Part shown: positions 1,313-29,874 of the stretch, piece by piece
Position numbering within the stretch: the first letter of the stretch is position 1
Layout of the letters: each line of letters opens with the position of its first letter
From: an uncultured Arcobacteraceae bacterium
GTDB lineage: Bacteria; Campylobacterota; Campylobacteria; Campylobacterales; Arcobacteraceae
Assembly: GCA_964022095.1 (NCBI GenBank)
Contig: CAXHZO010000001.1
Span: 288,001-352,000, forward strand
Reading direction: 5' to 3'
DNA: 64,000 nucleotides
Translations under genes and position numbers: made by a program
The notes under the pieces: generated by a model
Seen by the model: only the letters and a program-made list of their open reading frames with translations
Database searches by the model: none
What the model was told of the DNA's origin: nothing

Positions 1313-1326
1313 TACTTCTCCTACTA

Positions 1327-2356: not shown

Positions 2357-2431
2357 TTAGTTATGACAAATGTACATTGTCACTTCAAAACCAAATCTGT
2401 TATCTACGAACATAGGTGTTTCCCATTTCAT
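2357..2431 (-). CDS. pqqA: PQQ precursor peptide, copy 1 (MKWETPMFVDNRFGFEVTMYICHN)
   Basis: 24 aa with RxGFEVTMY (ExxxY) core; AAGGAGG RBS; upstream of pqqB. Not in ORF track. Confidence 0.97.
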   Translation of the reverse strand: MKWETPMFVDNRFGFEVTMYICHN

Positions 2432-2467: not shown

Positions 2468-4231
2468 TTACTTATGTAATTTAAATACGTGAACTGTCCC
2501 ACCTTGGTTGATGTTTTTAACAAGTTTTGCAACTTCACCACCCCATAATGGAACAGCACCACCCCAACCAGAAACGATTGCGATATATTGCTCACCATTT
2601 TGAGTCCATGTTACAGGAGATGAAACAATTCCTGAACCAACATTAAAGCTATATAATGTTTCACCAGACTCGTCATCTAATGCTAAGAATTTACCTTCAG
2701 GAGTACCGAAGAATACTAAACCACCAGCAGTAGTTAAAACTCCACCCCATAATGGTGCAGGGTTTTTATAATTCCATTTAATATCACCAGTTAATGGATC
2801 AATTGCTTTTAATGAACCAATATGGTCATCAAAAATTGGTTTAATTGTAAATCCAGCACCTAAGTAAGCAGCACCTTTTTTATAAGAAATTGGTTGATTC
2901 CAAATATCCATACCCCACTCATTTGATGGAACATAGAAGTTACCAGTTTTTTGAGAGTATGCCATTGGCATCCAGTTTTTACCACCTAAGAACGAAGGAA
3001 CAGACCATACTGATTTACCTTTAGACTCAGAACCAGGATTACCAGGTCTTCCATCTTTAGTATATAAAGGTCTTCCATCTTTTCCAATTCCAGTTGCCCA
3101 AGTAATATTTGAAACAAATGGATTAGCAGTAATGAAGTCACCATTAGTTCTATCTAATACATAGAAGAAACCATTTCTATCTGCAGTTGCAGCATATTTT
3201 TTACCATCTTTGTTGAAAGAAATTAACTCATTAACACCATCAAAATCCCATCCATCATGTGGAGTTGTTTGGAAATGCCATACAATTTTACCAGTATCAG
3301 GATCAATAGCTAATCTTGAAGAAGAGTATAAGTTATCACCTGGTCTTGTGTGTGAATTCCAAGGTGCAGGGTTACCAGTACCAAAGAATAAAAGGTCTGT
3401 TTCTGGATCATAAGTACCACCTAACCATGTAGCAGCACCACCAGTTTTCCACATATCACCTGGCCATGTTTTACCAGCTTCACCACCAGTAATTCCATTT
3501 TCTTTACCATTTAAGTAACCCATGTGACCTTCAACAGTTGGTCTATTCCAAACTACTTCACCAGTTTTAGCATTTCTTGCTTCAACTTTACCAACGATAC
3601 CAAATTCACCACCAGCAACACCAGTGATTACCATATCTTTTACGATAATTGGAGCAGCAGTAATTGAGTAACCGTCTTTATATTTTGCAATTCTTTTTTT
3701 CCATACAACTTTACCAGTTTTTCTATCTAAAGCAACTAGTTTAGCATCTAATGTACCGAAAATAAATAAGTTTTCGTATAATGCTCCACCTCTGTTGATA
3801 ACATCACAACAAGGTAAAATTGCGCTTGGTAATTTTGCATCATATTGCCATAATTCTTCACCAGTAGCAATATCAATTGCATACGCTCTTGAATAAGAAC
3901 CAGTTACATACATAACTCCATCTTTAATTAATGGTTGTGACTCTTGTCCTCTTTGTTTTTCCCCACCAAATGAGAAGTTCCATACAGGTACTAAATTTTT
4001 AACAGTCTCTTTATTAACTTGTGTTAATTGTGAGTATCTTTGTCCTTGTAATCCCATACCGTTAGATAATACATCCTCAGTAGATTTTACATCATTTAAT
4101 ACATCGTTACTTGTTACAGTTGCAAAACCTGGCTTAGTAACTTTTTGTACATTAGTATCAGCAACACATCCTGTGATTAACGCAGCTAATGAAACAGCGA
4201 TAGCACTCTTTAATAGTACTTTTTTACTCAT
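2468..4231 (-). CDS. pedH: PQQ-dependent alcohol dehydrogenase, predicted lanthanide-dependent (PedH/ExaF type), putative lipoprotein
   Basis: [21 protein letters not shown] vicinal Cys, GGEFG, active-site [13 protein letters not shown] (extra Asp), [11 protein letters not shown]-terminal LITGC lipobox. Confidence 0.9.
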
Positions 4232-4255
4232 AGTCTCTCCTTAATTTATGTTATA

Positions 4256-4281: not shown

Positions 4282-4314
4282 AGTATACATGAGAAACATA
4301 GCATAAGTTTAGCT
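4282..4314 (-). promoter_or_regulatory. pedH promoter with regulon motif
   Basis: AGCTAAA-CTTAT-GCTATG-N9-TATACT on the minus strand. Confidence 0.7.
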
Positions 4315-5091
4315 ATTGTTAACTTTTTTAGATTTAAACCCTAAAAAGGCCATAACTAAAGTTATTACTAATGAAATAAATAAGACAAAAAGTGCCTGAT
4401 TATCGACTTTTAAATACAATGCAAACCTAATTGACTCTACTATATATGTAAAAGGATTATATGAAGAAATTTCATATAAAAGTATTGAAGAGTCTTTAAT
4501 TTTCCATAATGGGTACAGTGCTGAGCTTAAAAAGAACATTGGAAAAATAACGAAATTCATTACTGTAGCAAAGTTCTCAAGTTGTTTAATAACTGATGAA
4601 ATAAATAATGCAAAGGCATTTAATATAATTGAAGAGACTATAATTACAGGTATTGTTACTAATATAGCAATAAAACTAATATCAACTCCATAAGCTTTTG
4701 CTATTAATAAAAATGTTACTGCTTGAATAGTTGATACTATTGAAGTAGCAAACATCTTACAAAATAGTAAATAATTTCTATTTATATATGATGATAAAAG
4801 AATCTTCATACTTCCCATCTCTCTATCAAATATCATTGTAAGTGAACTTTGCATACCATTAAATAGTAACACCATCCCTACTAAACCTGGAACTATATAT
4901 GTCTCATATGTAATATATGTTTCATATGGAGGAGTAATTGCTAGTCCAAGTGCAGTTTTAAAACCAACAGAGAAAATAAACAACCATAACAGAGGTCTAA
5001 CAAGTGCTGAAAAAAATCTACTTTTTTGTTTTACAAATCGAATTAACTCTTTATAGATAATTCCCTTCATACAATTAATATATATATTCAT
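4309..5091 (-). CDS. ABC-2 type permease of PQQ-ADH system (PedC/LutF-like)
   Basis: SRFFSALVRPLLWLFIF, LLFNGMQSSL..IFDREMGSMK, LENFATVMNFVIFPMFFLSSALYPLW. Confidence 0.88.
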   Translation of the reverse strand: MNIYINCMKGIIYKELIRFVKQKSRFFSALVRPLLWLFIFSVGFKTALGLAITPPYETYITYETYIVPGLVGMVLLFNGMQSSLTMIFDREMGSMKILLSSYINRNYLLFCKMFATSIVSTIQAVTFLLIAKAYGVDISFIAILVTIPVIIVSSIILNAFALFISSVIKQLENFATVMNFVIFPMFFLSSALYPLWKIKDSSILLYEISSYNPFTYIVESIRFALYLKVDNQALFVLFISLVITLVMAFLGFKSKKVNNS

Positions 5092-5094
5092 GCT

Positions 5095-5826
5095 TTACCT
5101 TACTAAATGGTTGAATGTATCAACTAAATTTTCTTTTTCATATTTGTTAACAATATCTTTTACAATTCCTGACTCTACAATATCACCTGCTTTTATAAAT
5201 GATATATTATCAACTTCTTTTACCTCATCAAATAGATGCGTAATCCAAAGTACACTTACATTTTCTCTTTTAACTAAATCTCTAACATAATCTAATATAT
5301 CAAATCTACTTTTTAAATCTAATCCTACAGTAGGTTCGTCCAACAATAAAAGTTTTGGTTTGTTAATAAGAGCTCTTAAGATTTCAACTCTTCTTCTATG
5401 GCCACCATTTAGTTTTCTTGCTGTTTTATCTAAAACATCTTCAAGCTCTAATCTTTTTATTTCATCTTTTATCGATTCAATAGTTTCTTTAAACCCTAAG
5501 CCTTTAATAGCACCATAGTAGTATAGATTTTGTCTAACTGTTAAATCTAAATCTAATGTTGGTTCTTGAAATACAATCCCAATATCTTTTAATGATTTTG
5601 AATAATTCTCTATTGAGTGTTGATTTATATTAATCTCACCTACTTCTAATTTTAGTAGCCTAGTGATTAATGAGAAAATTGTTGATTTTCCTGCACCATT
5701 TAATCCAAGTAATACAGAAAAGCTTCCCTCATTTATATGAAAGGATATTTTATTTAATACTTTTTTACTACCATATGAAAATTCTACGTCTTTTAGTTCT
5801 AATATTTTTTTACACATTTTTACCAC
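5095..5826 (-). CDS. ABC ATP-binding protein of PQQ-ADH system (PedB/LutE-like)
   Basis: Walker A GLNGAGKS, GIVFQEPTLDLDLTVRQNL, LNGGHRRRVEI, LLDEPTVGLD. Confidence 0.88.
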   Translation of the reverse strand: MVKMCKKILELKDVEFSYGSKKVLNKISFHINEGSFSVLLGLNGAGKSTIFSLITRLLKLEVGEININQHSIENYSKSLKDIGIVFQEPTLDLDLTVRQNLYYYGAIKGLGFKETIESIKDEIKRLELEDVLDKTARKLNGGHRRRVEILRALINKPKLLLLDEPTVGLDLKSRFDILDYVRDLVKRENVSVLWITHLFDEVKEVDNISFIKAGDIVESGIVKDIVNKYEKENLVDTFNHLVR

Positions 5827-5850
5827 AATCTATTTTAAATTTTAATATTG

Positions 5851-5883
5851 ATTATATGACATCTTTATAGCATACATTTAGCA
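5851..5883 (-). promoter_or_regulatory. ABC ATPase/permease promoter with regulon motif
   Basis: TGCTAAA-TGTAT-GCTATA-N9-TATAAT on the minus strand. Confidence 0.75.
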
Positions 5884-5893
5884 AAAATCTATT

Positions 5894-5931
5894 AAAAAAA
5901 TACATAACTTGAAAAGTTTCAAGCTATGTAT
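5894..5931 (-). terminator. Intrinsic terminator after pqqA2
   Basis: AUACAUAGCUUGAAA/UUUCAAGUUAUGUAU stem with a G-U pair, followed by a U-tract. Confidence 0.75.
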
Positions 5932-5959
5932 CATAAAACCAAAGAAGGTCAGTTATTTA

Positions 5960-6034
5960 TTATTCATTACAAATATACATTGTAACTTCAAAACCAAATC
6001 TATTATCAACGAACATCGGTGTTTCCCATTTCAT
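5960..6034 (-). CDS. pqqA: PQQ precursor peptide, copy 2 (MKWETPMFVDNRFGFEVTMYICNE)
   Basis: 24 aa, 22 identical to copy 1 with several synonymous differences; AAGGAGG RBS. Not in ORF track. Confidence 0.96.
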   Translation of the reverse strand: MKWETPMFVDNRFGFEVTMYICNE

Positions 6035-6057
6035 TTCAATTACCTCCTTTTTAAAGT

Positions 6058-6759
6058 TTACCAATCAGTTGGACAATCTTTACAACCATCCATATATACT
6101 CCACTTAAGTTTGCATAATGGATTCTTGTTCCTGTAAAAATTGCCTTATGTAAAGACGCACTAGATAATTTAGTTTCTTGTAAATTCGCATTAGTAAAAT
6201 TTGAATTTTCAAAATTTATTCTTGTCATCCATGCCGCTTCTAAATTTACTGCTTGTAAATTACAATTTTTCATACTAGAGCCACTCATTCTTGCAAACTC
6301 AAGATTAGCACCATGAAAAGATGAATTATCAAATGTACTACCTTGTGCAAATAAAGCCCATGCATTTACTCCATCAAAATTACTATTTGATGCTTTTGCA
6401 ACCTTAATATTTGCATGTCTTAAATCTGCTCTTGCTAAATTTGCTCCTTCAAAATTTGAATTACTCATATCTGAATTCTTTAAAATTGCATGTCTTAACT
6501 TTGCATTTTTAAAATTTGACTTTCTCAATATTGATTTTGTCAAATTTACTCCATCAAGAATTGCTCCTTCAAAGTTAGCCCCTTCGAAATTAGACTCTTT
6601 TAAATCTAACCCCGAAAGATTTTGCTTACTTAAATCTACATTTTGACAACTTGTTTTTGGTACTAGCTTACATCCATTAATTATTCTTATTTCGTCATCT
6701 TCATATGCATGAATTAAACTCATAAAAATAATTAAAATAACTATAACTTTTTTCATCAT
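6058..6759 (-). CDS. Exported pentapeptide-repeat protein (PedD-like)
   Basis: Signal peptide, long A(N/D)L/Fxx repeats, Cys pairs at both ends (GCKLVPKTSC, GCKDCPTDW); adjacent to the ADH gene. Confidence 0.85.
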   Translation of the reverse strand: MMKKVIVILIIFMSLIHAYEDDEIRIINGCKLVPKTSCQNVDLSKQNLSGLDLKESNFEGANFEGAILDGVNLTKSILRKSNFKNAKLRHAILKNSDMSNSNFEGANLARADLRHANIKVAKASNSNFDGVNAWALFAQGSTFDNSSFHGANLEFARMSGSSMKNCNLQAVNLEAAWMTRINFENSNFTNANLQETKLSSASLHKAIFTGTRIHYANLSGVYMDGCKDCPTDW

Positions 6760-6823
6760 GTGCCTTTTGAGTATTATTTAACTTCTAATTTTATATACTT
6801 TAAATTCCCAATTTGCGTATAAA

Positions 6824-8710
6824 TTATCTTTTAAGTTTAAATACCCAGAAAGAACCACCTTGAGATACAGGTTTAGTTAATTCAGCCATGTCTCCACCCC
6901 ATAAAGGTACAGCTCCACCGTAACCACTTGCAAGTCCTATATATTGTTCACCATCTTCTTCCCAAGTAATTGGACAAGAAATAATTCCAGAACCAGTTTG
7001 GAACTTCCATAACTCTTTACCAGTTTTTGCATCAAATGCTTTAACATAACCATCACCAGTACCTGTAAATACAAGGCCACCTTTAGTAGTTAATACTCCA
7101 GCCCATAATGGTAATTTTTCTTTATGTGACCATACAATTTCGCCTTTTACTGGATCAACTGCTCTTAAAATACCTACATGATCATCATAAGTTCTCTTAA
7201 TTCTAAATCCTTGACCTAAATACGCTGCACCTTTTTTGTACTCAATAGGTTGAGTCCAATAATCTTCTTCCCAATGGTTTGCACCAAGATAGAATAATTT
7301 TGTATCTTCATTATATGCCATTGGGTTCCAGTTCTTACCACCTAAGAATGGTGGAGCAACCTTGATAGCTTTTCCTCTTGTTTTCCCCTCTTCAGGTAAT
7401 GGTGGGTATTGTTTTGGATCAACAACTGGTCTACCTGTTTTTGGGTCAATATGACTTGCCCATGTAATCTTATCAACAAATGGGAAAGCTTTAATAAATC
7501 TTCTTGCTTGATCTTCTCTTTGCTTATCAGCTTTTTTCATAGTTTCTCTATTAATTACATAGAAGAATCCATTTCTATCTGCATGTCCAGTAGCTTTAAT
7601 TGTTTTACCATTTTCTACATAATCAAATAGTACTAATTCATTATTACCTGAGAAATCCCATGCATCATTTGGTGTATGTTGGTAGAACCATTTAATATCA
7701 CCAGTAGTTGGGTCAACTGAAATTTGTCCTGATGTATATAAACTATCCCAATCTCTTGGATCTCCACCATCAGCAGTTCTTTCCCAAGTATTCCATGGTG
7801 CTGGATTTCCAGTACCTATAATAATTGAGTTTGTTTCATAATCATAACTAGCACTTTGCCATGGTGCACCACCACCGTGACTCCAAGCTGTTTTTTTACC
7901 AGTAGGATTATTTTTATCATCTGGCCAAGTTGGAGCTTTAGGATCTCCTGTTGGAGTTGATTTTTTACCATTTAATCTACCATAGTGACCTTCAACCATA
8001 GGTCTCATCCAGATCTCTTTACCTGTATCTGGATCTAATGCAAATAATTTACCTATAACACCGAATTCATCACCTGATGAACCATGGATTAACATTACTT
8101 TTCCAGTTTTTTTATCTTTTACAATAGTTGGAGCACCAGTCATAGTATAACCGTCTTGATACCCTTTATTTGGTCTATCTGCATATCCAAATCTTTTTTT
8201 CCAGATCACTTTTCCTGTATCTTTATTTAATGCAACAATACCAGCATCTAAAGTACCAAAGAATACTTTATCTCCAAATATAGCTGCACCTCTGTTAATT
8301 ACATCACAACAAGGTTTAATATCTGAAGGTAATCTATGCTCATATTCCCATATTTTTTTACCACTTTTTGAATCAAGTGCAAATAATCTTGAATATGATC
8401 CAGTTACATATATTTTTCCATCATGAACTAAAGCTTGAGACTCTTGTCCTCTTTGTTTCTCTCCTCCAAATGAAAACGTCCAAGCTGGTACTAAATCTTT
8501 AATAGTTTTAGTATTTATCTCATCAAGTTTTGAGTATCTTTTTGCTTCTGGTCCCATACCATACATTAATACATCTTCAGTTGTATTTTTATCATTTAAG
8601 ATATCGTCCCATGATACTTTTTTTGTTTCAGTACTTGCAACACTAGATTGAAGTCCTAATAAACCAACAAAAGTCATAACAGCTGCTTTTTGTAACAAAT
8701 GATTTCTCAT
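6824..8710 (-). CDS. exaA: PQQ-dependent ethanol dehydrogenase, predicted calcium-dependent (PedE/ExaA type)
   Basis: [32 protein letters not shown] (Ser in place of the extra Asp), FLGGKNWNPM. Confidence 0.92.
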   Translation of the reverse strand: MRNHLLQKAAVMTFVGLLGLQSSVASTETKKVSWDDILNDKNTTEDVLMYGMGPEAKRYSKLDEINTKTIKDLVPAWTFSFGGEKQRGQESQALVHDGKIYVTGSYSRLFALDSKSGKKIWEYEHRLPSDIKPCCDVINRGAAIFGDKVFFGTLDAGIVALNKDTGKVIWKKRFGYADRPNKGYQDGYTMTGAPTIVKDKKTGKVMLIHGSSGDEFGVIGKLFALDPDTGKEIWMRPMVEGHYGRLNGKKSTPTGDPKAPTWPDDKNNPTGKKTAWSHGGGAPWQSASYDYETNSIIIGTGNPAPWNTWERTADGGDPRDWDSLYTSGQISVDPTTGDIKWFYQHTPNDAWDFSGNNELVLFDYVENGKTIKATGHADRNGFFYVINRETMKKADKQREDQARRFIKAFPFVDKITWASHIDPKTGRPVVDPKQYPPLPEEGKTRGKAIKVAPPFLGGKNWNPMAYNEDTKLFYLGANHWEEDYWTQPIEYKKGAAYLGQGFRIKRTYDDHVGILRAVDPVKGEIVWSHKEKLPLWAGVLTTKGGLVFTGTGDGYVKAFDAKTGKELWKFQTGSGIISCPITWEEDGEQYIGLASGYGGAVPLWGGDMAELTKPVSQGGSFWVFKLKR

Positions 8711-8780
8711 TTTCTCTCCTTAATAAAATTTATTTCAAATAAATACAATTAATATGTAACTATTTTAAAACAATTGTTAA

Positions 8781-8813
8781 ATTATACATTTTAATTATAG
8801 CCTTAGTTTAGCA
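8781..8813 (-). promoter_or_regulatory. exaA/pedE promoter with regulon motif
   Basis: TGCTAAA-CTAAG-GCTATA-N9-TATAAT on the minus strand. Confidence 0.75.
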
Positions 8814-8946
8814 TTAATCGTAAATAATAAAATTTATATGTAATTAATTAGTTATTAATAATAGTGTTTATGATTTAATTAATATATTTCATAAATATTG
8901 AAATAAAGTTTAGTTGTAAATGAGTTATTTAGGTTTTTATAAAATT

Positions 8947-8987
8947 AAAAGAAAAATAGCTTAGGATATGAATATTCCTAAGCTATT
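8947..8987 (-). terminator. Intrinsic terminator after beta-propeller gene
   Basis: AATAGCTTAGGA...TCCTAAGCTATT inverted repeat with U-rich tail on the minus strand. Confidence 0.7.
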
Positions 8988-9004
8988 GTGTTAGTAGATT
9001 GAAG

Positions 9005-9973
9005 CTAATTTTTTTTCTCACTTGGAATTACAGCTAATCCCCAAGGATATCTTCCTACTTTTATACTTTTTTCTACTTTTAAAGATTCTACATCTATTAT
9101 AGATACATCTCCACTAACACCGTTTGTTGTATATAGTTTTTTTTCATTATCTGCTAAAGCTAATTGCCAAACTCTACTTCCAACTAATAGGTATTTAATT
9201 ACTTTATAAGTTTTTGCATCAACAACAGCTACATGATTTGCAGGCCCTAAGGCTACAAATGCATATTTACCATCACTTGTTAACTGTATACCAACTGGTT
9301 GAATTAAGTCTTTAAAGATTCCAGGAATTTTAAAACCAAATTTTGCAATTTCTTCTTTTGTTTTTGCATCAACAACCATTACTGTTCCACCAATCTCAGA
9401 AGAAGCCCAAACTTTATCACCTGATTCAGTAAACTCAATATGTCTTGGTCTTTCATCAACTAATGTATTGTGAACAATTTTTTTACTTTTTGTATCAATC
9501 CAATGTAAAAAATTAGATGTTTCTGATGTATTAATTGCAACGCTTCCATCTGGACTAACAGCCATACCTTCTGGCTCTAAACCTACTTCAATTTGTGATA
9601 CAACAGTTTTATTAGGAATATCAACAACTGTTACAATACCATCATCTTCATTGGATATGTAAAGCTCTTTCCCATCTGGATGTAAAGCGAACTGTTCAGG
9701 ATCTTCACCTGAAGGAAGATCATATAAAATTTTTCCAGTTTTTGTATCCATGGCTTGTACTGTATCATCATCACTAGCACAAATATATAATTTTGTGTAA
9801 TCATTATTTAATAAGATACCTCTTGGCCTTTGACCAACTTCATAAGTTTGCACAACTTTTTGAGTATTTGAGTCAATTACTGAAATAGTATTATCTTTTT
9901 CATTTGAAACAAAAATTGTATCTGAAAGTAGTGCTGAACTTAAAATAGAAATTAATCCTAATTTCTTTAACAT
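9005..9973 (-). CDS. PQQ-catabolism-associated YVTN beta-propeller protein (PedA1-like)
   Basis: FVSNEKDNTISVID, GQRPRGI, LPSGEDPEQF, VGLEPEGM, YTTNGVSGDVS, VGRYPWG repeats; signal peptide. Confidence 0.88.
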   Translation of the reverse strand: MLKKLGLISILSSALLSDTIFVSNEKDNTISVIDSNTQKVVQTYEVGQRPRGILLNNDYTKLYICASDDDTVQAMDTKTGKILYDLPSGEDPEQFALHPDGKELYISNEDDGIVTVVDIPNKTVVSQIEVGLEPEGMAVSPDGSVAINTSETSNFLHWIDTKSKKIVHNTLVDERPRHIEFTESGDKVWASSEIGGTVMVVDAKTKEEIAKFGFKIPGIFKDLIQPVGIQLTSDGKYAFVALGPANHVAVVDAKTYKVIKYLLVGSRVWQLALADNEKKLYTTNGVSGDVSIIDVESLKVEKSIKVGRYPWGLAVIPSEKKN

Positions 9974-9992
9974 TTTATCTCCTTAAAAAATT

Positions 9993-10019
9993 AACACAAA
10001 GTAAAAATTACTTTGTGTT
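9993..10019. other. Intergenic hairpin
   Basis: AACACAAAGTAA-AAA-TTACTTTGTGTT perfect 12-bp inverted repeat between co-oriented genes. Confidence 0.55.
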
Positions 10020-10024
10020 TAGTA

Positions 10025-10453
10025 TTATTTAACTATAAAAGTAGCTCTTTCTCTATCACTTTTAGCTGAAGGAAGACCTAATGTATACGTTCCTGGCTTA
10101 ATAGGTATAAAAGTTAATTCAATCTCACCCTCATCATCAAATTCAAAACTATCAATTCCTAATGGTCTTACTTCAATATCATTAATAGATACTTGATTTA
10201 CCCAAATATTTCTAAAAAATTCTGGACCTACAATAGGAATTTCTCTTGAACCATCACTTTTTAACTCGATTTTATAGTATTTACCAGCTACTAAATTATA
10301 AGGTTTTTCTGCTAATGCTTTACCAGCACCAATAGTTATAGGCTCTAGTGTTGTTCTAGAGTGTAATAAACCTTTAATATTTGCTGCAAAAGCAAATTCA
10401 CTTGTTAAAAGCACCATAAATAAACATAACGCAATCTTCTTAATCATTTTCAA
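10025..10453 (-). CDS. Exported protein, cupredoxin-like fold, lacking copper ligands
   Basis: Signal peptide; L.AGKYYKIEL and FIPIKPGTY strands typical of cupredoxin-like proteins; acidic DSFEFDDEGEIE; no Cys in the mature part. Confidence 0.6.
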   Translation of the reverse strand: MKMIKKIALCLFMVLLTSEFAFAANIKGLLHSRTTLEPITIGAGKALAEKPYNLVAGKYYKIELKSDGSREIPIVGPEFFRNIWVNQVSINDIEVRPLGIDSFEFDDEGEIELTFIPIKPGTYTLGLPSAKSDRERATFIVK

Positions 10454-10487
10454 TCCTTTTCCTTAATTATTCTAAAATTGTATCAAA

Positions 10488-10520
10488 ATTGTATTAAAGT
10501 TTTATAGCTTCAGTTTAGCA
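10488..10520 (-). promoter_or_regulatory. Promoter with regulon motif (cupredoxin-like/beta-propeller operon)
   Basis: TGCTAAA-CTGAA-GCTATA-N9-TACAAT on the minus strand. Confidence 0.75.
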
Positions 10521-10542
10521 TTTAATGTTTTTCTTATTATTT

Positions 10543-10575
10543 TGCTAAACTATAGCTATATATTTTCTATACAAT
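10543..10575 (+). promoter_or_regulatory. Promoter with regulon motif (SBP-DUF302 operon)
   Basis: TGCTAAA-CTATA-GCTATA-N9-TACAAT on the plus strand. Confidence 0.75.
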
Positions 10576-10601
10576 ATAGAAATAAAAAACAAAGGATTAA
10601 A

Positions 10602-11750
10602 ATGAAAATTATAATTTCGATACTTTTTTTAATAAGTTTAATAAAAGCAGAAATACTAGAAGTTAATATCTTATATTTAGAACAAAAAATACAAAAGCCA
10701 CCTATTCTTTCAAATGTTATTGAAGAGCCTGAGGACTTAGGACTAAAAGGTGCACAAATTGCTATTAAAGATAGTAATAAAACGGCAAAGTTTTTAAATC
10801 AACACTATAATTTGATAGAAAAAATATCTTACGATAAAAAAGAGCTAAAAAAAGATTTTGAAGAATTTATAAATAGTGGAAATTCATATATACTTTTAAA
10901 TGTTGAAGATGATTTTTTTAAAGAGTTACTAAATAACCCACTTTCAAAAAAAGCATTATTAATAAACTCAAGTAGTAAAACAACTGACTTAAGAAAACAA
11001 TATTGTCAAGAGAATTTACTTCATACAATTTCAAGCAATGCAATGCTTTATGATGGATTAGTACAATTTCTAATAAAAAGAAACTTCAAAGATATATTTT
11101 TAATTAGTGGAGAAAATCCAAAAGATAACCTAATTGTAAAAGATATAAAAAGAGCAATTAAAAAATTTAATGCAAATATAATTAAAGAAAAAGTTTGGGA
11201 TAATAATAGTGATATTAGAAGAAAAGCAAATGCAGAGTTTCCAGTATTTACTCAAGCAAAAGATTATGATTTAGTTATGTTAGCTGATCACTATGGGGAT
11301 TTTGGCGAGTTTATGTATTTTAATACTTGGCTTCCAAGACCAGTTGCAGGAACACAAGGATTAACTCCTGTTACTTGGCATAAAGTTATTGAAGCTTGGG
11401 GTGCAGCACAAATGCAAAGTAGATTTGAAGATTTTGCTTCTAGATGGATGCAATCAAAAGACTATTCAAACTGGGTAGCAATTAGAACAATTATTACATC
11501 GATTTCAAAAACAAAAACTTCTGATTTAAAAACAAATTTAGAGCTTATTAGATCAAAAAGTTTTGATATAGCTGCATATAAAGGAAGAAAACTATCTTTT
11601 AGAGACTATAATGGGCAATTAAGAATGCCTGTTTCTTTAGTACAACCAAGAGCACTTATTTCAACTTCACCGCAGGTTGGTTTTTTACATCCTGAAACTG
11701 ATTTAGATACATTAGGTATTGCACCATTTGAAATGGAGTGTAAAAAATGA
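10602..11750 (+). CDS. ABC substrate-binding protein of PQQ-ADH system (PedA2/LutA-like)
   Basis: WLPRPVAGTQGLTPVTWH..EAWGAAQMQSRF, YKGRKLSFRDYNGQLR, SPQVGFLHPETDLDTLG; start moved to ATG 10602 (AAGGA RBS, promoter upstream). Confidence 0.85.
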   Translation: MKIIISILFLISLIKAEILEVNILYLEQKIQKPPILSNVIEEPEDLGLKGAQIAIKDSNKTAKFLNQHYNLIEKISYDKKELKKDFEEFINSGNSYILLNVEDDFFKELLNNPLSKKALLINSSSKTTDLRKQYCQENLLHTISSNAMLYDGLVQFLIKRNFKDIFLISGENPKDNLIVKDIKRAIKKFNANIIKEKVWDNNSDIRRKANAEFPVFTQAKDYDLVMLADHYGDFGEFMYFNTWLPRPVAGTQGLTPVTWHKVIEAWGAAQMQSRFEDFASRWMQSKDYSNWVAIRTIITSISKTKTSDLKTNLELIRSKSFDIAAYKGRKLSFRDYNGQLRMPVSLVQPRALISTSPQVGFLHPETDLDTLGIAPFEMECKK

Positions 11751-12205
11751 TAAAAGTTCTCTCTTTATTTTTACTTTTTATTAGTTACGTAAGTGCTTCA
11801 TATGAAGTAATTGATGAGGAGAATATTTTTACAATTAAAACAAAAGACATTAGTTTTGATGAGTTACATATAAACTTAGAAGATGAGATTACTTTTCAGA
11901 GTTTTGTAATTGTTCATAAATTAGATTTAGCAAAATCAACAGCTAAAGTTGCTGAGGCTTTAGAAAAAAAAGCTGTTTTAAAAAAAGGTATAAATATACT
12001 TATTTGTAAAAGTAGTTTTACACTTGCTATGCATGAAGAGAATATTAAAAATATTACATATTGTCCTTTAAATATTTCAGTATATGCAGATGAACAGTAT
12101 AATTATATATCTTATAAAAAATATGATAATTTTGGTAAAGATGATAAAATAGCTAATGAGATAAATGAAAAGTTAAAAAATATTGTTTTAAAGAGTTTGG
12201 ATTAA
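11747..12205 (+). CDS. Exported DUF302-family protein
   Basis: Signal peptide, ILIC...YCPLNISVY pattern; ATGA overlap with the upstream gene. Confidence 0.65.
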   Translation: MIKVLSLFLLFISYVSASYEVIDEENIFTIKTKDISFDELHINLEDEITFQSFVIVHKLDLAKSTAKVAEALEKKAVLKKGINILICKSSFTLAMHEENIKNITYCPLNISVYADEQYNYISYKKYDNFGKDDKIANEINEKLKNIVLKSLD

Positions 12206-12222
12206 AATCCAAAACTCTTTAA
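12188..12222. terminator. Hairpin between convergent genes
   Basis: TTAAAGAGTTTGGAT...ATCCAAAACTCTTTAA with one bulge. Confidence 0.55.
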
Positions 12223-12226
12223 CTTT

Positions 12227-13201
12227 TTACATCTTAACTAAATATCTTCCAACTGCTTTACCAGCTAATAATTGTTCATAAGCTTCTTTTACTTCATCTA
12301 AAGAAATTTCATTTGTTAAATCGTTTAATGTATCAACTTTAAACTCATCTGCAACTTTTTCCCATGCAGCGATTTTCTTTTCAATTTTACATTCAACAGA
12401 ATCAATACCAACTAATCTAACACCTCTTAAAATAAATGGAAATACATTTGTATTTAATGCAAAAGAAGAAGTTAATCCACAACAAGTAGCAACACCATCA
12501 TATTTTATAACTTTTAAAGCTTCTGCTAAAATATTTCCACCAACAGTATCAATCACACCATCGTATTTTTCACTACCCATTGGTCTTTTATTCTCTACAT
12601 CAAAATCTTTTCTTAAAATTACTTCAGTTGCACCAATGCTTTTTAAGAACTCAATTTTTTCTTCTTTTCCTGAAATTGCAGTTACTTCAAATCCTAATTT
12701 ACTTAAAATTGAAACAGCAATACTCCCAACTCCACCAGTTGCACCTGTTACTAAAACACTTCCTGATGTTACACCGTTGTTTAATAATTCATTTACACTT
12801 AAAGCAGCTGTTAATCCAGCTGTTCCATAAGTCATAATCTCTTTATCTGTAATATTTTCAGGCATTGGAACAACCCATGATGCTGGAACTTTTACATATT
12901 CACTATGTCCACCATTTGTGTTCATACCTAAATCATAACCAGTTACTAAAACTTTTTGACCTACTTTAAAACTATCACTATTTGATTGCTCAATTGTACC
13001 AGCTACATCAATACCTGTAACGTGAGGAAATACTCTTGTTACTCCTGGATTACCAACTGAACTTAATGCATCTTTATAATTTAATGATGAATAAGTAGTT
13101 TTAATTAATACTTCATTCTCTTCAATATTAGGAATATCTATTTCTTGTATTCCTGAACTAAACTTCTTATCTTCAATTTTCTCTACAATATATGCTTTCA
13201 T
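12227..13201 (-). CDS. YhdH/YhfP (AcuI-like) NADPH-dependent oxidoreductase
   Basis: YSSLNYKDAL, GTAGLTAAL, VTGATGGVGS, VFPFILRGVRLVGIDSV. Confidence 0.9.
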   Translation of the reverse strand: MKAYIVEKIEDKKFSSGIQEIDIPNIEENEVLIKTTYSSLNYKDALSSVGNPGVTRVFPHVTGIDVAGTIEQSNSDSFKVGQKVLVTGYDLGMNTNGGHSEYVKVPASWVVPMPENITDKEIMTYGTAGLTAALSVNELLNNGVTSGSVLVTGATGGVGSIAVSILSKLGFEVTAISGKEEKIEFLKSIGATEVILRKDFDVENKRPMGSEKYDGVIDTVGGNILAEALKVIKYDGVATCCGLTSSFALNTNVFPFILRGVRLVGIDSVECKIEKKIAAWEKVADEFKVDTLNDLTNEISLDEVKEAYEQLLAGKAVGRYLVKM

Positions 13202-13263
13202 AAAAAATCCTTTATTTTCTTTACTTCTTAATGAAACTTTAGCTAAAATACAAACTTAAGACA

Positions 13264-13288
13264 AGTACATACTAAAAAGAAATGTACT
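13264..13288. promoter_or_regulatory. Candidate HxlR-family operator
   Basis: AGTACAT-N11-ATGTACT inverted repeat between divergent oxidoreductase and regulator genes. Confidence 0.45.
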
Positions 13289-13326
13289 ATATAAAAAGAT
13301 ACCTATGTGATTTTAAGGGGTTTACA

Positions 13327-13668
13327 ATGAATAAGAAAATGGAAGAAAAAGAATTAATTGAGAAATGTCCAGTTGAAACAGCACTTGATGTACTAGCTGG
13401 AAAATGGAAAATTTTAATATTATGGTATTTAAAAAGTGAAACTAGAAGATTTAGTGAACTACAAAAACTACTGCCAAGAACAACTCAAAAAATGTTAATT
13501 CAAAAATTAAGAGAACTTGAAGAGGATGGAATAATTCATAGAGAAGTATATCCAGTAGTTCCACCAAAAGTAGAATACTCTTTAACTGAGTATGGTGAAA
13601 CACTGAAACCTATATTAAAACAATTATACAAATGGGGTGAAATTCACAAAGAAAAGTATAATAAATAA
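13327..13668 (+). CDS. HxlR-family winged-helix regulator
   Basis: CPVETALDVLAGKWKILI, RFSEL, YPVVPPKVEYSLT; start at 13327 has an AAGGGG RBS. Confidence 0.92.
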   Translation: MNKKMEEKELIEKCPVETALDVLAGKWKILILWYLKSETRRFSELQKLLPRTTQKMLIQKLRELEEDGIIHREVYPVVPPKVEYSLTEYGETLKPILKQLYKWGEIHKEKYNK

Positions 13669-13694
13669 TATAGCTTAATTAATTTTGGCTATTG

Positions 13695-13814
13695 TTATAT
13701 TAAAATCAATAGAACGATAGCTAAAATAAAACCAAACTCATACTTAAACATACTTTTCATATCATCTGATGTAATTGATTCACTATAGTGTGCGTCATAT
13801 GATGTAATATTCAT
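13695..13814 (-). CDS. Small putative membrane protein, 39 aa
   Basis: AAGGA RBS; MNITSYDAHYSESITSDDMKSMFKYEFGFILAIVLLILI with hydrophobic C-terminus. Not in ORF track. Confidence 0.55.
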   Translation of the reverse strand: MNITSYDAHYSESITSDDMKSMFKYEFGFILAIVLLILI

Positions 13815-13972
13815 AATTAGTTCCTTATAGTTATATTTTATTACTATACACAATAACATATATAACTTATTTTATTCTTAAGAAATCTATAGTAATTTAC
13901 TTATATTTTAATAAAAAACCTCCTAACTGTATATATACTGTACAATTAAGAGAATATTACAACCTTTTTTTA

Positions 13973-16481
13973 CTACTCTCTAAATTTTTTTTCACCAACA
14001 TCTTCTAATATTTGTTTAGCAAGTTTATTTGAATTAGCTGCTATATCATGAGTTTGTGAAGCAATTTCTGCATTTTCTTGAGTTTGCTTATCTAAGCTAT
14101 AAACTGCACTATTAATTTGCTCTATTCCAGATAATTGCTCTTTACTTGATTTATCAACAAAATCAATTAAATGTAAAGTCTCTTCAATATTGTTATTAAG
14201 TTTTTTATATCCTTCAATCATTTCAGAAGCAATACCTTTACCTTCATTTGCTTTGAAGCTTGCATCTTCAACTAATTTTTTTATCTCATCAGCTGCTTGG
14301 GCACTTCTACTTGCTAAGTTTCTAACTTCTTGAGCAACAACAGCAAATCCTTTTCCAGCTTCACCTGCAGTTGCTGCTTCAACGGCTGCATTAAGAGATA
14401 AAATATTTGTTTGAAATGCAATTTGATCAATCACTTCAATTGCTTCACTAATAGCAGTTACTTTTTCGTTTATTTCATCCATAGAAGAGTTTGTTTTATT
14501 AGCTAATACTTCCCCACTTGTAGAAGACTCATTTACTTTTTTAGAATAGTTAGTCATTTTATAAATATTCTCTGAACTATTTCTAATATTTGATGTAATC
14601 TCTTCAATTGATGAAGATGTCTCCTCTAAAGATGCTGCTGCTTGAGTAGAACTAAGCTTTAATTTATTTACATTGTCAAGTAAAGTATCTGATTGTCTAT
14701 CAATAGTTAATCCTCTTTGTTTACTTTTATTTAGCATTGTAGAGATTGAATCACCTAAATAATTTACTCCTTGTGCTAAATTTAATAAATCTTCTTTTAA
14801 TCCATTTGTATCTACTTTTTCTAAATAATCATAATTTGAATATTTATCTAAAATATTTAAAACCTTATTTATATTAGATTCTAAATTCCCTGCCATATTA
14901 TTAAGTACATCTTGTAATTGCATTAAAGAAGGATTAGATACATTTTGATTTAATCTTTTTGACAAATAACCCTTTTCAAAATCACCTAACACTGCTATTG
15001 TTTCATCAATTAGTTTTCTATCTTCATCTATTGATTTTTTAGTAATTTGAACATTCTCATTTAAAATACTTGCCATTTGACCTATTTCATCATCATTAAC
15101 AACTTCTAATAATACAGCATCATCTGATTTATGATTTAAATATGAAAAGAAAGAGTCTAATCCATCTTTTAATTTTTCAATTGGATTTATTATTAGTTTG
15201 CTTATTAAACTAATAGAGATAATCAAAAATATTGTGATACTTACAATTGAAGCAATTAATACAAATCTTCTAAGCTCATATGCTGTTTGAAAAGCTTCAT
15301 CTTCATCAATTTCAGACACTAATACCCATTTTGTTTGATCAAAAATATTTATTACCTCAAAAGCACTTAATACACTAATCCCTCTATAATCATCAATTAT
15401 CCAATTAGCTTCATTTATATTTTTTTCAAAGGCTGCTTTTGTTGTATCTGTTTTTACTTCCCAAATACCAATAGTTGAATTTAACTCTTTTACAATGTCA
15501 TCATTTATGTCATTTAAAAATCTAGAGTTGTTTCTCATTTTATAATCACTACCAATTAAATAAGCCTCACCACTTTTTCCAAAACCTGATTCTTCATAAT
15601 CTCCATTAAAACTCATAATGTCATTGATTTTATCAACTGGCATTTGAAAAATTAAAACACCTTGTTTCTTATCATTTATAAAGATAGGTGTTGCAATAAA
15701 GGAAGCAGCTGAATTATAACTAGGCTCATAGGGAGCAAAATCTTCAAAAGCAATTTCATTTTTATTTAACTGTAATGCTTTTTTATAAACTTTTCCAATA
15801 CCTGTTTTTGAATATACACCATTAATTAAATTTGTACCAAAATCTTTTTCTTTGAAGTCTGTGTAAATTAAGTTACCCTTTAAATCTACCATGAAAATAT
15901 CATATAAACTATAATTAATTAAGAATTCATTGAAAGTGCTATGGTATAACTTATGTGCCTCCATATATTTAGACTTATATTTTTCATTATAAACTAAATT
16001 GTTTTTTTCTCCCAATTTTTCTTTATTATCAGTAATAAAAATATATTGAGCAATTAAAGAGTTATTATTAATTGGAAGATAGGTATCCATATCTTTTCTT
16101 GAATCACTATTTGGGACTTTATAATTTACCAAATCTAAATAGTTTGTCTTAAAATCTTTTGAAATTTCTTCTTCAATAAAATCAATATCTAAATCAATTT
16201 CATTAGATAAATTATGAAAACCTTCTTCAAAATCTACAAAAGCATCTTTTGTAGTTTTACTTTGAGATAAAGATAAAAGAAGTGATTGTAATGTTCCAAA
16301 ATAAGATTGAATTTCATTCTTTTTAGTAGTTTTGATAGCTTGTAGCTTATTCATTTCTGATTTTTCTAAAGATTTCATTGACATATCTATAGATAGATAT
16401 GAGATAATAGAACCTAGAAAAATCAAACTAAATGCGATTAAAGTAATTAACTTAAATCTAATTGATAAGTTTTTTTTTCAT
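13973..16481 (-). CDS. Methyl-accepting chemotaxis protein (Cache-like sensor), frameshifted at A9 tract directly after the ATG
   Basis: [30 protein letters not shown] signalling motif; ATG at 16481 with RBS is one base out of frame with the long ORF. Confidence 0.85.
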
Positions 16482-16552
16482 TTATCAGCCCTTTATAAAA
16501 TAATCTATAATTGTACTGTAAATTAATAAATGTATAAATAAATAAGAAAAAA

Positions 16553-16951
16553 CTAGTACTTACCAAACTCTTTATATGTTTTATCTTCAAAAATTATAAA
16601 GACTGTTTTTGGATCATTATCATTCTCATAAGCAGGTAATGCTAAACCAATTGAGTCCTTAATTGGTTTTGCTAAAAAATCTTTTATAGCTTTTGAAGGA
16701 ACATTACCTTCAAATACATAATCATTTAAAAAAGAGGTATTACATGATTGTATTTCAAAAGGAACACCAACATCTTTTTTTATTGCTTTTACGCTTCTTA
16801 AAGTTATGATCTCTACATCTTTTGCAACTAAATTCATCTCTTCATACCAAGAAGGAGGACAAGTACTACTTAGAGGTTTAAAAACTTGCATTTTCCCTTC
16901 ACTTGCAAACAATGCAACTACTAAACTAGCTAAAATAAATATTTTTTTCAT
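16553..16951 (-). CDS. Exported DUF411-like protein, degenerate metal ligands
   Basis: KKDVGVPFEIQSCNTS...YVFEGNVP...IGLALP matches the DUF411 pattern (SCHT, EGHVP, GLAVP). Confidence 0.65.
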   Translation of the reverse strand: MKKIFILASLVVALFASEGKMQVFKPLSSTCPPSWYEEMNLVAKDVEIITLRSVKAIKKDVGVPFEIQSCNTSFLNDYVFEGNVPSKAIKDFLAKPIKDSIGLALPAYENDNDPKTVFIIFEDKTYKEFGKY

Positions 16952-17661
16952 ATTTCACCTTTTAATATATTTGGATATTCATCAAAAAGATTGTTTTTAA
17001 TCTCATCAATTCTTTTTAAATCAAAACTTTGTTCATTTGGGTTGTTAAACTCTAAAATTACCTTTGCAGGATTTTTTGAAAAGAAGAATATTCTATTTGA
17101 AAATAAAATAGCCTCACTTATATCATGAGTTACAAGAATAACTATTGGATTGAATTTTTTGCAAAGTTCTAAAAAGTCTTTTTTAAGCTCTTGAGAAGTT
17201 GGAAAATCTAAAGAAGTAAAAGGCTCATCAAGTAAAATTAATTTCGGTTGATTTATAAATGCTCTTACAAATGCAACTCTTCTTTTCATGCCCCCTGATA
17301 ATACTTTTGGATATTCATCTAAAAAATCTTCTAAATCGATTAATCTTAGTAATTCTATTATATCTTCAATACTTTTTGATTGAGAAACTAATAAAAGATT
17401 CTCTTTAATTGTTAGCCAAGGAACTAATCTATCATCTTGAAAAACAAAAGAAATCTCATCAAAAGGTATATCAATATGTCCACAATAGTCATTATCTAAG
17501 TTTGATAAAATATTTAAAAAAGTACTTTTACCACACCCTGATGGACCAATTATTGATATAAATTCATTCTCTTTTACATTCATATTTATATCTTTTAATA
17601 TGGTTTTAGTGTTGTATTCTTTTGAGCTTATATTTATATCAATCATACTATTTCCATGCAT
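16948..17661 (-). CDS. NitT/TauT-family ABC ATP-binding protein
   Basis: GPSGCGKST, FVFQDDRLVPW, LSGGMKRRV, LLDEPF. Confidence 0.88.
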   Translation of the reverse strand: MHGNSMIDINISSKEYNTKTILKDINMNVKENEFISIIGPSGCGKSTFLNILSNLDNDYCGHIDIPFDEISFVFQDDRLVPWLTIKENLLLVSQSKSIEDIIELLRLIDLEDFLDEYPKVLSGGMKRRVAFVRAFINQPKLILLDEPFTSLDFPTSQELKKDFLELCKKFNPIVILVTHDISEAILFSNRIFFFSKNPAKVILEFNNPNEQSFDLKRIDEIKNNLFDEYPNILKGEI

Positions 17662-18379
17662 TTATTTTATTTTCTATTGGCTTTAATATATAGTTCTCAA
17701 TTAATAATATAACAATAATAAAAGCTAAAGAATAAGCTAAAATAGATGTAATATTAAAAAATTGGAAAAACATTGATATTTTAAATCCAATCCCATCACT
17801 TCTACCAAGTAACTCTACAACTAAAACAATCTTCCAAATTAAAGATAAGGATAATCTTGTTGAAGCCATTATATATGGATAGATTTGAGGTAAAAAAACT
17901 TTAAAGAAAGTTTCTTTTTTTGATACTTTATATACTTGTGCTAGTTTTAAATACTTTTGCTCAACTGCTCTAGTGCCTTCTCTAATATTAACTACAACAA
18001 TTGGTACTTTATTTAAAATAACAGCCAATAATGCTGCAAAATCTGTTAATCCAAACCAAATATAGCAAATAACAATCGTAACTAATGCAGGTATATTTAA
18101 ACTAAGAATTAATATAAAATCAAATATATCATCTACTTTTTTTGATAAACCCATTGCTATACCAATAAATATTCCAATAAGCATTGTAATAAAAAATGTT
18201 ACAAATACTCTATAAAGAGTAATTCCTAAGTGATGAAACAGTTCTCCATCCCCCATATGTCTAATTAAATCATAAAAGATATCAACAACACTTGGGAATA
18301 CTGAAGATTCTATAGTAACAGCAATAGCTTGCCAAAGTATTACAAAAATAAATATTGATATTAGTTTAGTTTGATTCAA
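17648..18379 (-). CDS. NitT/TauT-family ABC permease
   Basis: Hydrophobic; LNIPALV, REGTRA, WKIVLVVELLGRSDGIGF. Confidence 0.88.
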   Translation of the reverse strand: MNQTKLISIFIFVILWQAIAVTIESSVFPSVVDIFYDLIRHMGDGELFHHLGITLYRVFVTFFITMLIGIFIGIAMGLSKKVDDIFDFILILSLNIPALVTIVICYIWFGLTDFAALLAVILNKVPIVVVNIREGTRAVEQKYLKLAQVYKVSKKETFFKVFLPQIYPYIMASTRLSLSLIWKIVLVVELLGRSDGIGFKISMFFQFFNITSILAYSLAFIIVILLIENYILKPIENKINAWK

Positions 18380-18393
18380 AATATAATTCCCAT

Positions 18394-19350
18394 TTATTTT
18401 TCAAAGTCCCAGAAAGTTTTTGTTTGTAAATAATTACTATTTTTAACTAATTTTCTACCACCCTGCTTTAGAAGAATCTCAAATATTTTTGAAGAATCTT
18501 TAATGTTTTTCTTTGTAAAATCTTTAATTACACCTGCTTTATAACCATCTATTAATGCATTAAAAGTTTTTTCATCTTTCACGTTCATTAATGGTTTAAT
18601 TCTCTCCCACTCTTTTTTATTATTTATTAAAATATCTTTTGCTTCATGTGTAGCTTTTATAAAAGAGTTATATAATTTTTTATTTTCTAAAGCAATATCT
18701 CTTCTAAAAGTCCATCCAACAGTTGAAATATCTTCTTTTATTCCAAAAGAAGCAAATACATCTTTAATTCTTATAAATTCTTTCGCCCCTTTTGCTTTAA
18801 CTTTTGCATTAAAATGCCAAAAATTAATTGCTCCATCTAATGAGCCATCTAATACTTTTTTCATTAAAATTGGAGGAGCAGCAAAAACTGGCTTAATTAT
18901 ATTTTTCAAATCTTTACCATATTTTAACTTTGAATAAGCCCTTAAGATTAGCCATGTTTTATCAACAGGACCTCCAGCAATACCTATACTTTGTCCTTCC
19001 AAATCTAAAATAGTTTTTGCATTATTATTTTTGTTTATATACATAGTGCCATTAGCTTTTGAATAAGGATAAAAAGTAAAATCTTTACCACTCGCTCTTT
19101 GAGTATTAACCCAAATCCAATCAGTAACAAAAATATCTACACTTTTAGATTGAAAGGCAACAGAGGTGGCATTTTTTGATGCTAATTTAACAATATCTAA
19201 ATCAAAGCCATATTTTTTATCTAATTTATGATGTTTTATTACATTTAGTTCCCAATTTACAGTACCAAAGGCAAGAACTCCAACTTTTAATTTTTCACTT
19301 GCACTAAGATTCAAAATTAATAAAAAGATTAAAAAATTCACTTTTTTCAT
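18394..19350 (-). CDS. NitT/TauT-family ABC substrate-binding protein
   Basis: VGVLAFGTVNWEL, VTDWIWV, GIAGGPVDKTW, NFWHFNAK; signal peptide. Confidence 0.85.
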   Translation of the reverse strand: MKKVNFLIFLLILNLSASEKLKVGVLAFGTVNWELNVIKHHKLDKKYGFDLDIVKLASKNATSVAFQSKSVDIFVTDWIWVNTQRASGKDFTFYPYSKANGTMYINKNNNAKTILDLEGQSIGIAGGPVDKTWLILRAYSKLKYGKDLKNIIKPVFAAPPILMKKVLDGSLDGAINFWHFNAKVKAKGAKEFIRIKDVFASFGIKEDISTVGWTFRRDIALENKKLYNSFIKATHEAKDILINNKKEWERIKPLMNVKDEKTFNALIDGYKAGVIKDFTKKNIKDSSKIFEILLKQGGRKLVKNSNYLQTKTFWDFEK

Positions 19351-19379
19351 ACAATTTATCCTTAAAGTTATTTAATGAA

Positions 19380-19412
19380 ATTGTATATGAGTTTTATAGC
19401 ATAAATTTAGCA
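19380..19412 (-). promoter_or_regulatory. Promoter with regulon motif (TauT-like ABC operon)
   Basis: TGCTAAA-TTTAT-GCTATA-N9-TACAAT on the minus strand. Confidence 0.75.
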
Positions 19413-19432
19413 TTTGATGATTCTTTTTTAAA

Positions 19433-19465
19433 TGCTATAATGAGGCTATAAAAAGAGTCTATAAT
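19433..19465 (+). promoter_or_regulatory. Promoter with regulon motif (cytochrome c550 operon)
   Basis: TGCTATA-ATGAG-GCTATA-N9-TATAAT on the plus strand. Confidence 0.7.
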
Positions 19466-29854: not shown

Positions 29855-29874
29855 ATAGAGAACTTTTTAACTAA

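Follow-up and report, generated by a model that had tools for sequence, protein, structure and literature searches.

In a 64,000-nucleotide stretch of DNA from an uncultured Arcobacteraceae bacterium (the window; C1:288001-352000 of the 2.57-Mb genome G000, with a G+C content of 28%), seven promoters of a ped/pqq cluster for alcohol oxidation dependent on pyrroloquinoline quinone (PQQ) carry copies of one conserved box. We propose that this box is probably bound by an OmpR/PhoB-type regulator linked to a FIST-domain histidine kinase, and that the pair switches on alcohol and aldehyde oxidation genes, likely upon sensing an aldehyde. The parts of this model differ in strength. From the sequence context, we consider it quite probable that this regulator binds the box and, given binding, very likely that it activates; the chances that the signal is an aldehyde are about even. 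The box has a fixed geometry, is conserved across relatives and is linked to the kinase/regulator pair. The regulon is real and is undescribed as far as we searched. Its activator is of a well-known kind, its sensor is unusual, and gene context gives a strong lead on the signal. It is also wider than was seen in an earlier interpretation of the window from its letters alone (the sequence-only reading), and its conserved core is an aldehyde dehydrogenase (ALDH), not the PQQ cluster.

The seven sites named in the sequence-only reading are all present, each exactly 9 nt before a -10 box of the form TATAAT, TACAAT or TATACT. On the minus strand, the box at 4297..4314 precedes pedH-pqqA-pqqB-pqqC(D); its second half-site is GCTATG, it shares positions 4309-4311 with the stop codon of pedC, and its -10 box, TATACT (4287-4282), predicts a transcription start at about 4275. 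The other minus-strand boxes lie before the pedB-pedC ATP-binding cassette (ABC) genes (5866..5883; TATAAT, 5856-5851), pedE-pedD (8796..8813; TATAAT, 8786-8781), a 142-aa open reading frame (ORF) followed by a pedA-like beta-propeller gene (10503..10520; TACAAT, 10493-10488), and a second ABC operon encoding an NMT1-type binding protein, permease, ATPase and DUF411 protein (19395..19412; TACAAT, 19385-19380). Divergent boxes on the plus strand precede the gene for the PQQ-system ABC binding protein, with its ATG at 10602 (10543..10560; TACAAT, 10570-10575), and pedF (c550) with genes for a solute-binding protein, a SoxYZ-like carrier and a SoxH-like hydrolase (19433..19450; TATAAT, 19460-19465). 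Every operon head of the cluster, which extends beyond the left edge of the window, thus carries a box. Gene names follow the Pseudomonas ped nomenclature, in part from family matches.

Five of the seven sites fit the originally described 18-mer, TGCTAAA-N5-GCTATA, exactly, with one mismatch at 19433 and two at 4297. Loose matches to it (up to three mismatches) occur in the window at chance frequency (46 versus 44.7 expected); exact copies number five in the whole genome, all within the cluster and all with TANANT at +9. Because the leading T is kept in just 34 of 89 boxes from relatives, we take the core to be GCTAWA-N5-GCTATA. This core occurs 10 times in G000 when no -10 box is required, and TANNNT lies at 9 nt in 8 of the 9 boxes that have no further half-site downstream. 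The sequence-only reading did not find the full arrangement outside the cluster. This holds inside the window but not genome-wide, as two further strict sites lie to its left, one before the ALDH gene (C1:282630-282661) and one before an XdhC-like gene (C1:265194-265225), each belonging to a series of four half-sites in phase. When G000 is scanned with a matrix built from 126 sites of other genomes, the top ranks (25-36 bits) are taken by six of the seven sites and these two, and the highest score in the reversed genome is 14.9. The pedB site scores 23.7, lower than two distal candidates.

Among the distal matrix matches in G000, those at C15:46335, C2:332484, C29:3446, C2:48473 and C1:127111 are weak and are not claimed as sites, and C9:56510 is a candidate that we neither claim nor discard. 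The box at C4:28054, before a gene for an NADH-dehydrogenase-like flavoprotein, is retained as a likely site since nine relatives carry a strict box at that gene. A site at 25834 with one mismatch was rejected; it lies inside a gene for a methyl-accepting chemotaxis protein (MCP) and has no -10 match. Assembled RNA contigs cannot show transcription starts and were not used as evidence: pedH contigs from two runs of different studies end downstream of where transcription is predicted to start (at 4261 and 4250), and a contig from another run extends into a box.

The box is a direct repeat with an 11-bp period. OmpR/PhoB effector domains are described as sitting head-to-tail on direct repeats of 11 nt that lie about 10 bp before a sigma70 -10 box (PMC4415409, PMC1906773), and the proposal that our sites share this geometry is borne out by the period, the constant distance to the -10 box and the occurrence of tandem arrays. 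Across 184 genomes of the family, the strict spacing (5 and 9 nt) gives 344 matches, while the eight neighbouring spacings (gaps of 4-6 and 8-10 nt, 381 matches in all) together add 37, some of them inside true arrays. TANNNT is also found at 9 nt in 16/16 boxes from loci chosen by the kinase and in 26/26 from cluster loci; loci picked by their -10 pattern are left out of these counts. In the intergenic region between the ALDH and kinase genes (C1:282630-282683, minus strand), four half-sites follow one another at exact 11-bp steps, the last one 9 nt before TAGAAT. In one genus the step between half-site pairs is 12 or 13 bp, with 11 kept within each pair.

The sequence-only reading had advised looking for a two-component system left of pqqE. 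Such a system exists, 2.7-5.2 kb left of the window, and it tracks the box across genomes, making it the likely activator pair. Both genes lie on the plus strand: one (C1:282776-284692) encodes a FIST-FIST_C-HisKA-HATPase kinase of 638 aa, the other (C1:284689-285348) an OmpR-type regulator of 219 aa. Divergent from the kinase is an ExaC-like ALDH gene with DUF779 (C1:281050-282546, minus strand; 828 bits against a cut-off of 900). The sensory domains of the kinase are above Pfam cut-offs (FIST PF08495, E 7e-36; FIST_C PF10442, E 4e-20), and the FIST region has an invariant C310-x-x-R313-R314. With no hydrophobic segment (maximum 19-residue hydropathy 1.13), the kinase is read as soluble. The predicted fold of the FIST region (pLDDT 82.7) weakly matches FBXO22, its nearest solved fold, and chorismatase/Toblerone-fold enzymes (query TM score up to 0.45) and indicates no ligand; a sequence search of solved structures with the kinase matched the kinase core alone, and neither comparison brought up a bacterial FIST structure. 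The regulator has receiver (PF00072) and Trans_reg_C (PF00486) domains above cut-off and keeps the EDD, D52 and KPF motifs. We saw no second two-component system in the cluster.

Across the family, the strict pattern GCTAWA-N5-GCTATA-N9-TANANT makes its 344 matches in 83/184 genomes, and the reversed pattern makes none. Co-occurrence counts are descriptive here, as kin genomes are not independent. All 58 genomes with a PQQ alcohol dehydrogenase carry the box (310 sites), and 57 of them have the kinase at our cut-off (E of about 1e-140, passed by 99 genomes); the 58th, G195, has a frameshifted copy beside pqqE. Another 42 genomes have the kinase with no PQQ alcohol dehydrogenase found, and 21 of these have a strict match. 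In the other 21, an ALDH gene beside the kinase with a box at two mismatches or fewer accounts for 18, two loci end at a contig edge, and one genome has a paralogue only. Where neither kinase nor PQQ alcohol dehydrogenase is found, 4/84 genomes have one match each, near the background per spacing. Operon heads that are rearranged in G101 and G105 still carry boxes. Among 80 loci from named records, the ALDH gene is divergent from the kinase in 63, and 57 of these have a box with at most one mismatch; the named records with the module include Arcobacter, Aliarcobacter, Poseidonibacter, Halarcobacter, Malaciobacter, Sulfurimonas, Sulfurovum, Sulfuricurvum and Sulfurospirillum.

The box might track its target genes and not the kinase, and ALDH promoters in genomes without the kinase served as a control for this. 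We searched 80 genomes for the ALDH gene, namely 79 of the 85 kinase-negative genomes (six of low completeness were left out) plus the paralogue-only genome, and found an orthologue (70-88% identity) in 20. A box with up to two mismatches is present at 46/46 ALDH loci (45 genomes) with the kinase versus 2/20 where the kinase was not found. Thirteen of the 46 loci had been picked by pattern, and without them the count is 33/33; the 18 ALDH loci from kinase-bearing genomes picked for lacking a strict match all still carry a box. An orthologue of the regulator is absent from the five kinase-negative genomes checked (best matches 47-55%). The PQQ cluster looks like an addition to a more widespread core of ALDH, kinase and regulator.

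Together with the box geometry, these observations suggest a circuit in which the soluble FIST kinase would phosphorylate the regulator at Asp52. Head-to-tail regulator dimers would then sit on the half-sites, at about -38 to -22 where a -35 element would otherwise lie, and bring in sigma70 polymerase in the manner of PhoB, with the four-half-site arrays presumably holding two dimers. The signal may be a cytoplasmic aldehyde such as acetaldehyde, in which case the aldehyde formed by the PQQ enzymes or by ethanolamine lyase would induce its own disposal and further alcohol oxidation.

Enzymes encoded next to the kinase and the box outside the PQQ cluster bear on the signal. In a phylum-wide sample outside the family, 12/333 genomes have one strict match, and six of these belong to a single other family. 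In this second family, the kinase occurs in 32/61 genomes and the strict box in 14/61, with 13 of those 14 also having the kinase. Of 35 kinase loci listed there, we examined 22, and in 14 the kinase faces a 907-aa molybdenum aldehyde oxidoreductase (PDB 1dgj, E=0). All 14 have a GCTATA-N5-GCTAYR-like box 9 nt before TANNNT, and none of the other eight comes within two mismatches. The same arrangement of kinase and molybdenum enzyme is found in named Sulfurospirillum records, a gene for a tungsten-type aldehyde ferredoxin oxidoreductase lies near the kinase at two loci, and other kinase genes stand at the tail of XdhC-containing operons. Since three unrelated aldehyde-oxidising families flank the kinase, the signal is likely an aldehyde.

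Within the family, the distal strict matches that we fetched lie before genes for the NADH-dehydrogenase-like flavoprotein in nine genomes (Pfam Pyr_redox_2), a 4Fe-4S protein in six (with an ApbE-like neighbour in five), an MCP in four (the one checked has FIST domains), pta-ackA in four, an XdhC-like gene in two besides G000, and eutBC in two genomes of two genera. Long arrays precede a 399-aa porin-like protein with no Pfam match. The labels NADH dehydrogenase, porin and pta are our own.

In the leading alternative, which we regard as possible though doubtful, the box and regulator are the same and the FIST domain senses the alcohol itself, or nitric oxide (NO), haem or redox state as for NosP. 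Binding of NO or haem has been reported for FIST-FIST_C proteins (PMC8846402), a review of the Pseudomonas ped system takes nosP-nahK to sense NO, either in place of an alcohol or in addition to one (PMC12997753), and the invariant cysteine and arginines of our FIST domain could bind a cofactor. A non-aldehyde signal fits less well with the aldehyde oxidisers that face the kinase, drawn as they are from unrelated families, and with the 42 genomes that keep the kinase where no PQQ alcohol dehydrogenase was found. It also sits uneasily with the box at eutBC, whose product is acetaldehyde. Going further than the circuit itself, FIST domains in this lineage could be aldehyde sensors. The fused FIST kinase and OmpR-type activator would then be a Campylobacterota-wide aldehyde switch, re-attached to NAD-, molybdenum- and tungsten-dependent aldehyde oxidisers, that has also brought lanthanide/PQQ alcohol oxidation, the use of ethanolamine and a FIST chemoreceptor under its control. 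We hold this extension tentatively and rate its chances somewhat below even.

Several observations weigh against the circuit of FIST kinase, regulator and box that we favour. The ligands reported for FIST (NosP) are NO and haem, not aldehydes (PMC8846402). G000 encodes 36 OmpR-type DNA-binding domains above the Pfam cut-off, so it is linkage and co-occurrence that single out this regulator. Most paralogous FIST kinase/regulator pairs retain a near-identical recognition helix (almost unchanged in 6/7 aligned paralogous FIST-linked regulators) and yet lack an adjoining box, none being found at eight such loci that are not beside an ALDH gene. In the ALDH control, 17 of the 20 kinase-negative genomes belong to one genus, leaving few independent losses, and in the second family the consensus that all 14 molybdenum-enzyme loci fit was relaxed after those loci had been seen. 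Not every box stands before genes with an evident connection to aldehydes, some heading operons for 4Fe-4S and membrane subunits; among distal matches, four lie inside ORFs or have no gene behind them and five precede unrelated genes. Finally, a sister regulator 55% identical to ours has a box of the same geometry at an actP/pta-ackA locus, and four pta promoters in one genus fit the strict box.

This sister system, for which we found no published name, lies outside the window (C1:162678-179192) beside actP-like symporter genes, CBS-nucleotidyltransferase-like genes and pta-ackA, and from its neighbours it is likely an acetate regulon. Its box in G000 is GCTA(C/T)(T/G)-N5-GCTA(C/T)(T/G)-N9-TATAAT, and boxes with these half-sites in the same geometry are present at 4/5 other loci scanned. 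The two regulators are 53-55% identical and share box geometry. The sister kinase, in contrast, has a hydrophobic N-terminal segment, as expected of a membrane kinase, and matches the FIST kinase in its catalytic part only. Given the sister's similar box and the strict boxes at four pta promoters, cross-binding is possible. A GTTACT/GCTAY variant is retained, with unchanged spacing, at several ALDH promoters of kinase-negative genomes, which suggests that they may have been rewired to the sister regulator. It is nevertheless unlikely that our box is bound mainly by this regulator (C1:164242-164904), or by both, so that the cluster would answer to acetate or general C2 status. The similar recognition helix and the boxes at pta and before actP-like genes speak for such a role. 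However, the sister regulator is present in the four kinase-negative genomes checked, yet their ALDH promoters are 2, 4, 4 and 5 mismatches from the strict box; sister half-sites end in T or G, whereas cluster half-sites end in A; and the four-half-site array stands directly at the FIST kinase.

It is very unlikely that the motif is a -35-like element of an alternative sigma factor of the extracytoplasmic function (ECF) type, or that some other local regulator binds it (the AraC-type gene at L001:17526-18401, the HxlR-like gene at 13282 or the regulator at 29171). Sigma-factor promoters likewise show a fixed spacing to the -10 box, and A. butzleri is reported to have seven ECF pairs (PMC2147049), but in-phase arrays of four or more half-sites do not fit this explanation and the -10 box is of the housekeeping type, TANNNT. 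The AraC-type gene adjoins the kinase/regulator pair in G000 and G001 and has a homologue in the G105 locus; orthologues of it and of the HxlR-like gene were not seen in the cluster stretches of G061, G101 and G018 (in part only for G018), where boxes are kept. In the tree, the regulator at 29171 branches far outside the FIST-linked group. Least probable of all, the regulator might bind and repress by covering the -35 region, as the overlap of the box with the polymerase footprint and the ability of OmpR-type proteins to repress would allow, but no TTGACA-like columns or other -35 consensus are visible under or beside the aligned boxes, and a strict 9-nt spacing is expected for polymerase contact, not for steric blocking.

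The cluster encodes two PQQ alcohol dehydrogenases, both on the minus strand. One is of the PedH type (2468..4231), with a D-x-D motif (WDFDGVNE) that predicts lanthanide dependence, and the other of the PedE type (6824..8710), with a D-x-S motif (WDFSGNNE) that predicts calcium dependence, according to the published motif rule (PMC11996626, PMC5487730). The minus-strand pqqB and pqqC(D) genes (566..2244) are likely transcribed from the pedH promoter in a putative operon. Between pedH and pqqB, inspection by eye shows a 24-codon, pqqA-like ORF (2357..2431, minus strand). In the family, 58/184 genomes have a PQQ alcohol dehydrogenase, mostly a single enzyme nearer to the PedH type; five have a PedE-like match only (55-58% identity) and four have both types, the metal motifs having been read in the two enzymes of G000.

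The divergence of the pedH site had been put forward as a possible basis for isoenzyme switching. This idea is not supported: both isoenzymes are present, but a control-site difference between pedE and pedH is not conserved. The weak site, which runs into the pedC stop codon, is lineage-specific, and the dual-isoenzyme relatives G001 and G196 have the strict consensus. In a third, G198, no strict pedH site appears among the matches listed. A lanthanide switch, if there is one, may act through some element other than the box. Right behind the pedH -10 box (about 4255-4271, minus strand) is an inverted repeat, ACAAATT-CCC-AATTTGT, identical in G001, partly kept in G018 and absent in G061, which is possibly a second operator or a hairpin. 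The 70-nt, AT-rich pedE leader (8711-8780), with the palindrome AACAATTGTT, is similar in dual-enzyme G001 and not in pedE-only G101 and G105, and is a candidate lanthanide-switch site.

Other features lie beside these systems. The yhdH, hxlR-like regulator and MCP genes inserted in the cluster (12227-16426) have no box, and G001 carries this insertion too. A further OmpR-type regulator and kinase are encoded at 29171-31158; the regulator resembles the CosR/HP1043 type. In G144 (L049:563-2173), a gene for a decarboxylase-type enzyme dependent on thiamine pyrophosphate, a class able to produce aldehydes, lies divergent to a paralogous FIST kinase/regulator pair. A FIST-MCP orthologue (65%) is encoded at C6:39368-41254 in G000, with no strict box found upstream. 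At L105 (G197), L103 and L108, about 1 kb separates the box from the porin-like gene, and the L105 gap holds a 256-aa ORF resembling a REP-associated transposase. In three second-family genomes, strict boxes lie away from the kinase (L127, L130 and L138); the two that are annotated precede 4Fe-4S and membrane subunits, which look to us like a hydrogenase-4 operon.

Among known systems, the Pho box and PhoB of E. coli are closest in architecture. The Pho box is made of two direct-repeat units of 11 nt, to which PhoB binds head-to-tail, about 10 bp before a sigma70 -10 box (PMC4415409, PMC1906773). With its 11-bp period and 9-nt gap after the 6-mer, our box agrees in register within about 1 bp, and tandem arrays occur in both. 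The half-site, however, is GCTAWA here and CTGTCAT there, and our regulator is far below the PhoB family cut-off (TIGR02154, 92.5 versus 296 bits). The targets here are aldehyde and alcohol genes and the sensor is a soluble FIST kinase; no pst/pho targets were recognised among the boxes examined, so this is not a Pho regulon proper. NosP-NahK and other FIST-FIST_C sensors resemble our kinase in having FIST and FIST_C domains coupled to a histidine kinase. Here the two are fused, not separate, and are wired to a DNA-binding regulator, in a gene context of aldehyde oxidation as opposed to NO or c-di-GMP. A 2022 review describes little as known on FIST ligand binding (PMC8846402), and a single soluble kinase with a DNA read-out of known style offers a simple system in which to compare aldehyde with NO or haem.

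A literature search that did not reach most subscription journals or supplements turned up no publication describing this box or system. The genome paper for A. butzleri describes aldehyde dehydrogenases and many two-component systems and, in the sections available, draws no link between them (PMC2147049). [quoted passage not shown] The box can be used to predict members of the regulon in genomes of Campylobacterota, and might find use as a promoter part that responds to aldehydes.

In function, the nearest relative is the Pseudomonas ped/exa system (AgmR/PedR1/ErbR, PedS2-PedR2, YiaY-YiaZ and NosP-NahK, the last being PP_2663-PedS1), in which the same gene set is controlled (pedE, pedH, pedF, pedABC, pedD and pqq). 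There, these genes are described as being under the LuxR-type AgmR and PedR2 in a cascade, and the ped cluster also encodes a porin, NosP and NahK/PedS1 (PMC12997753). Our linked regulator is instead of the OmpR type; no LuxR-type regulator was seen among the cluster ORFs, a genome-wide search for that family not having been made. Where Pseudomonas uses a multi-level cascade, one OmpR-type regulator appears to act directly on every operon head. Both clusters encode a FIST protein (NosP in Pseudomonas) and its kinase (PMC12997753), the FIST domain here being fused to the kinase. If FIST domains do sense aldehydes, the same chemistry would explain nosP-nahK inside the Pseudomonas ped cluster. 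The same pathway is thus under an unrelated LuxR-type cascade in Pseudomonas, yet a FIST protein has been kept beside it in both lineages.

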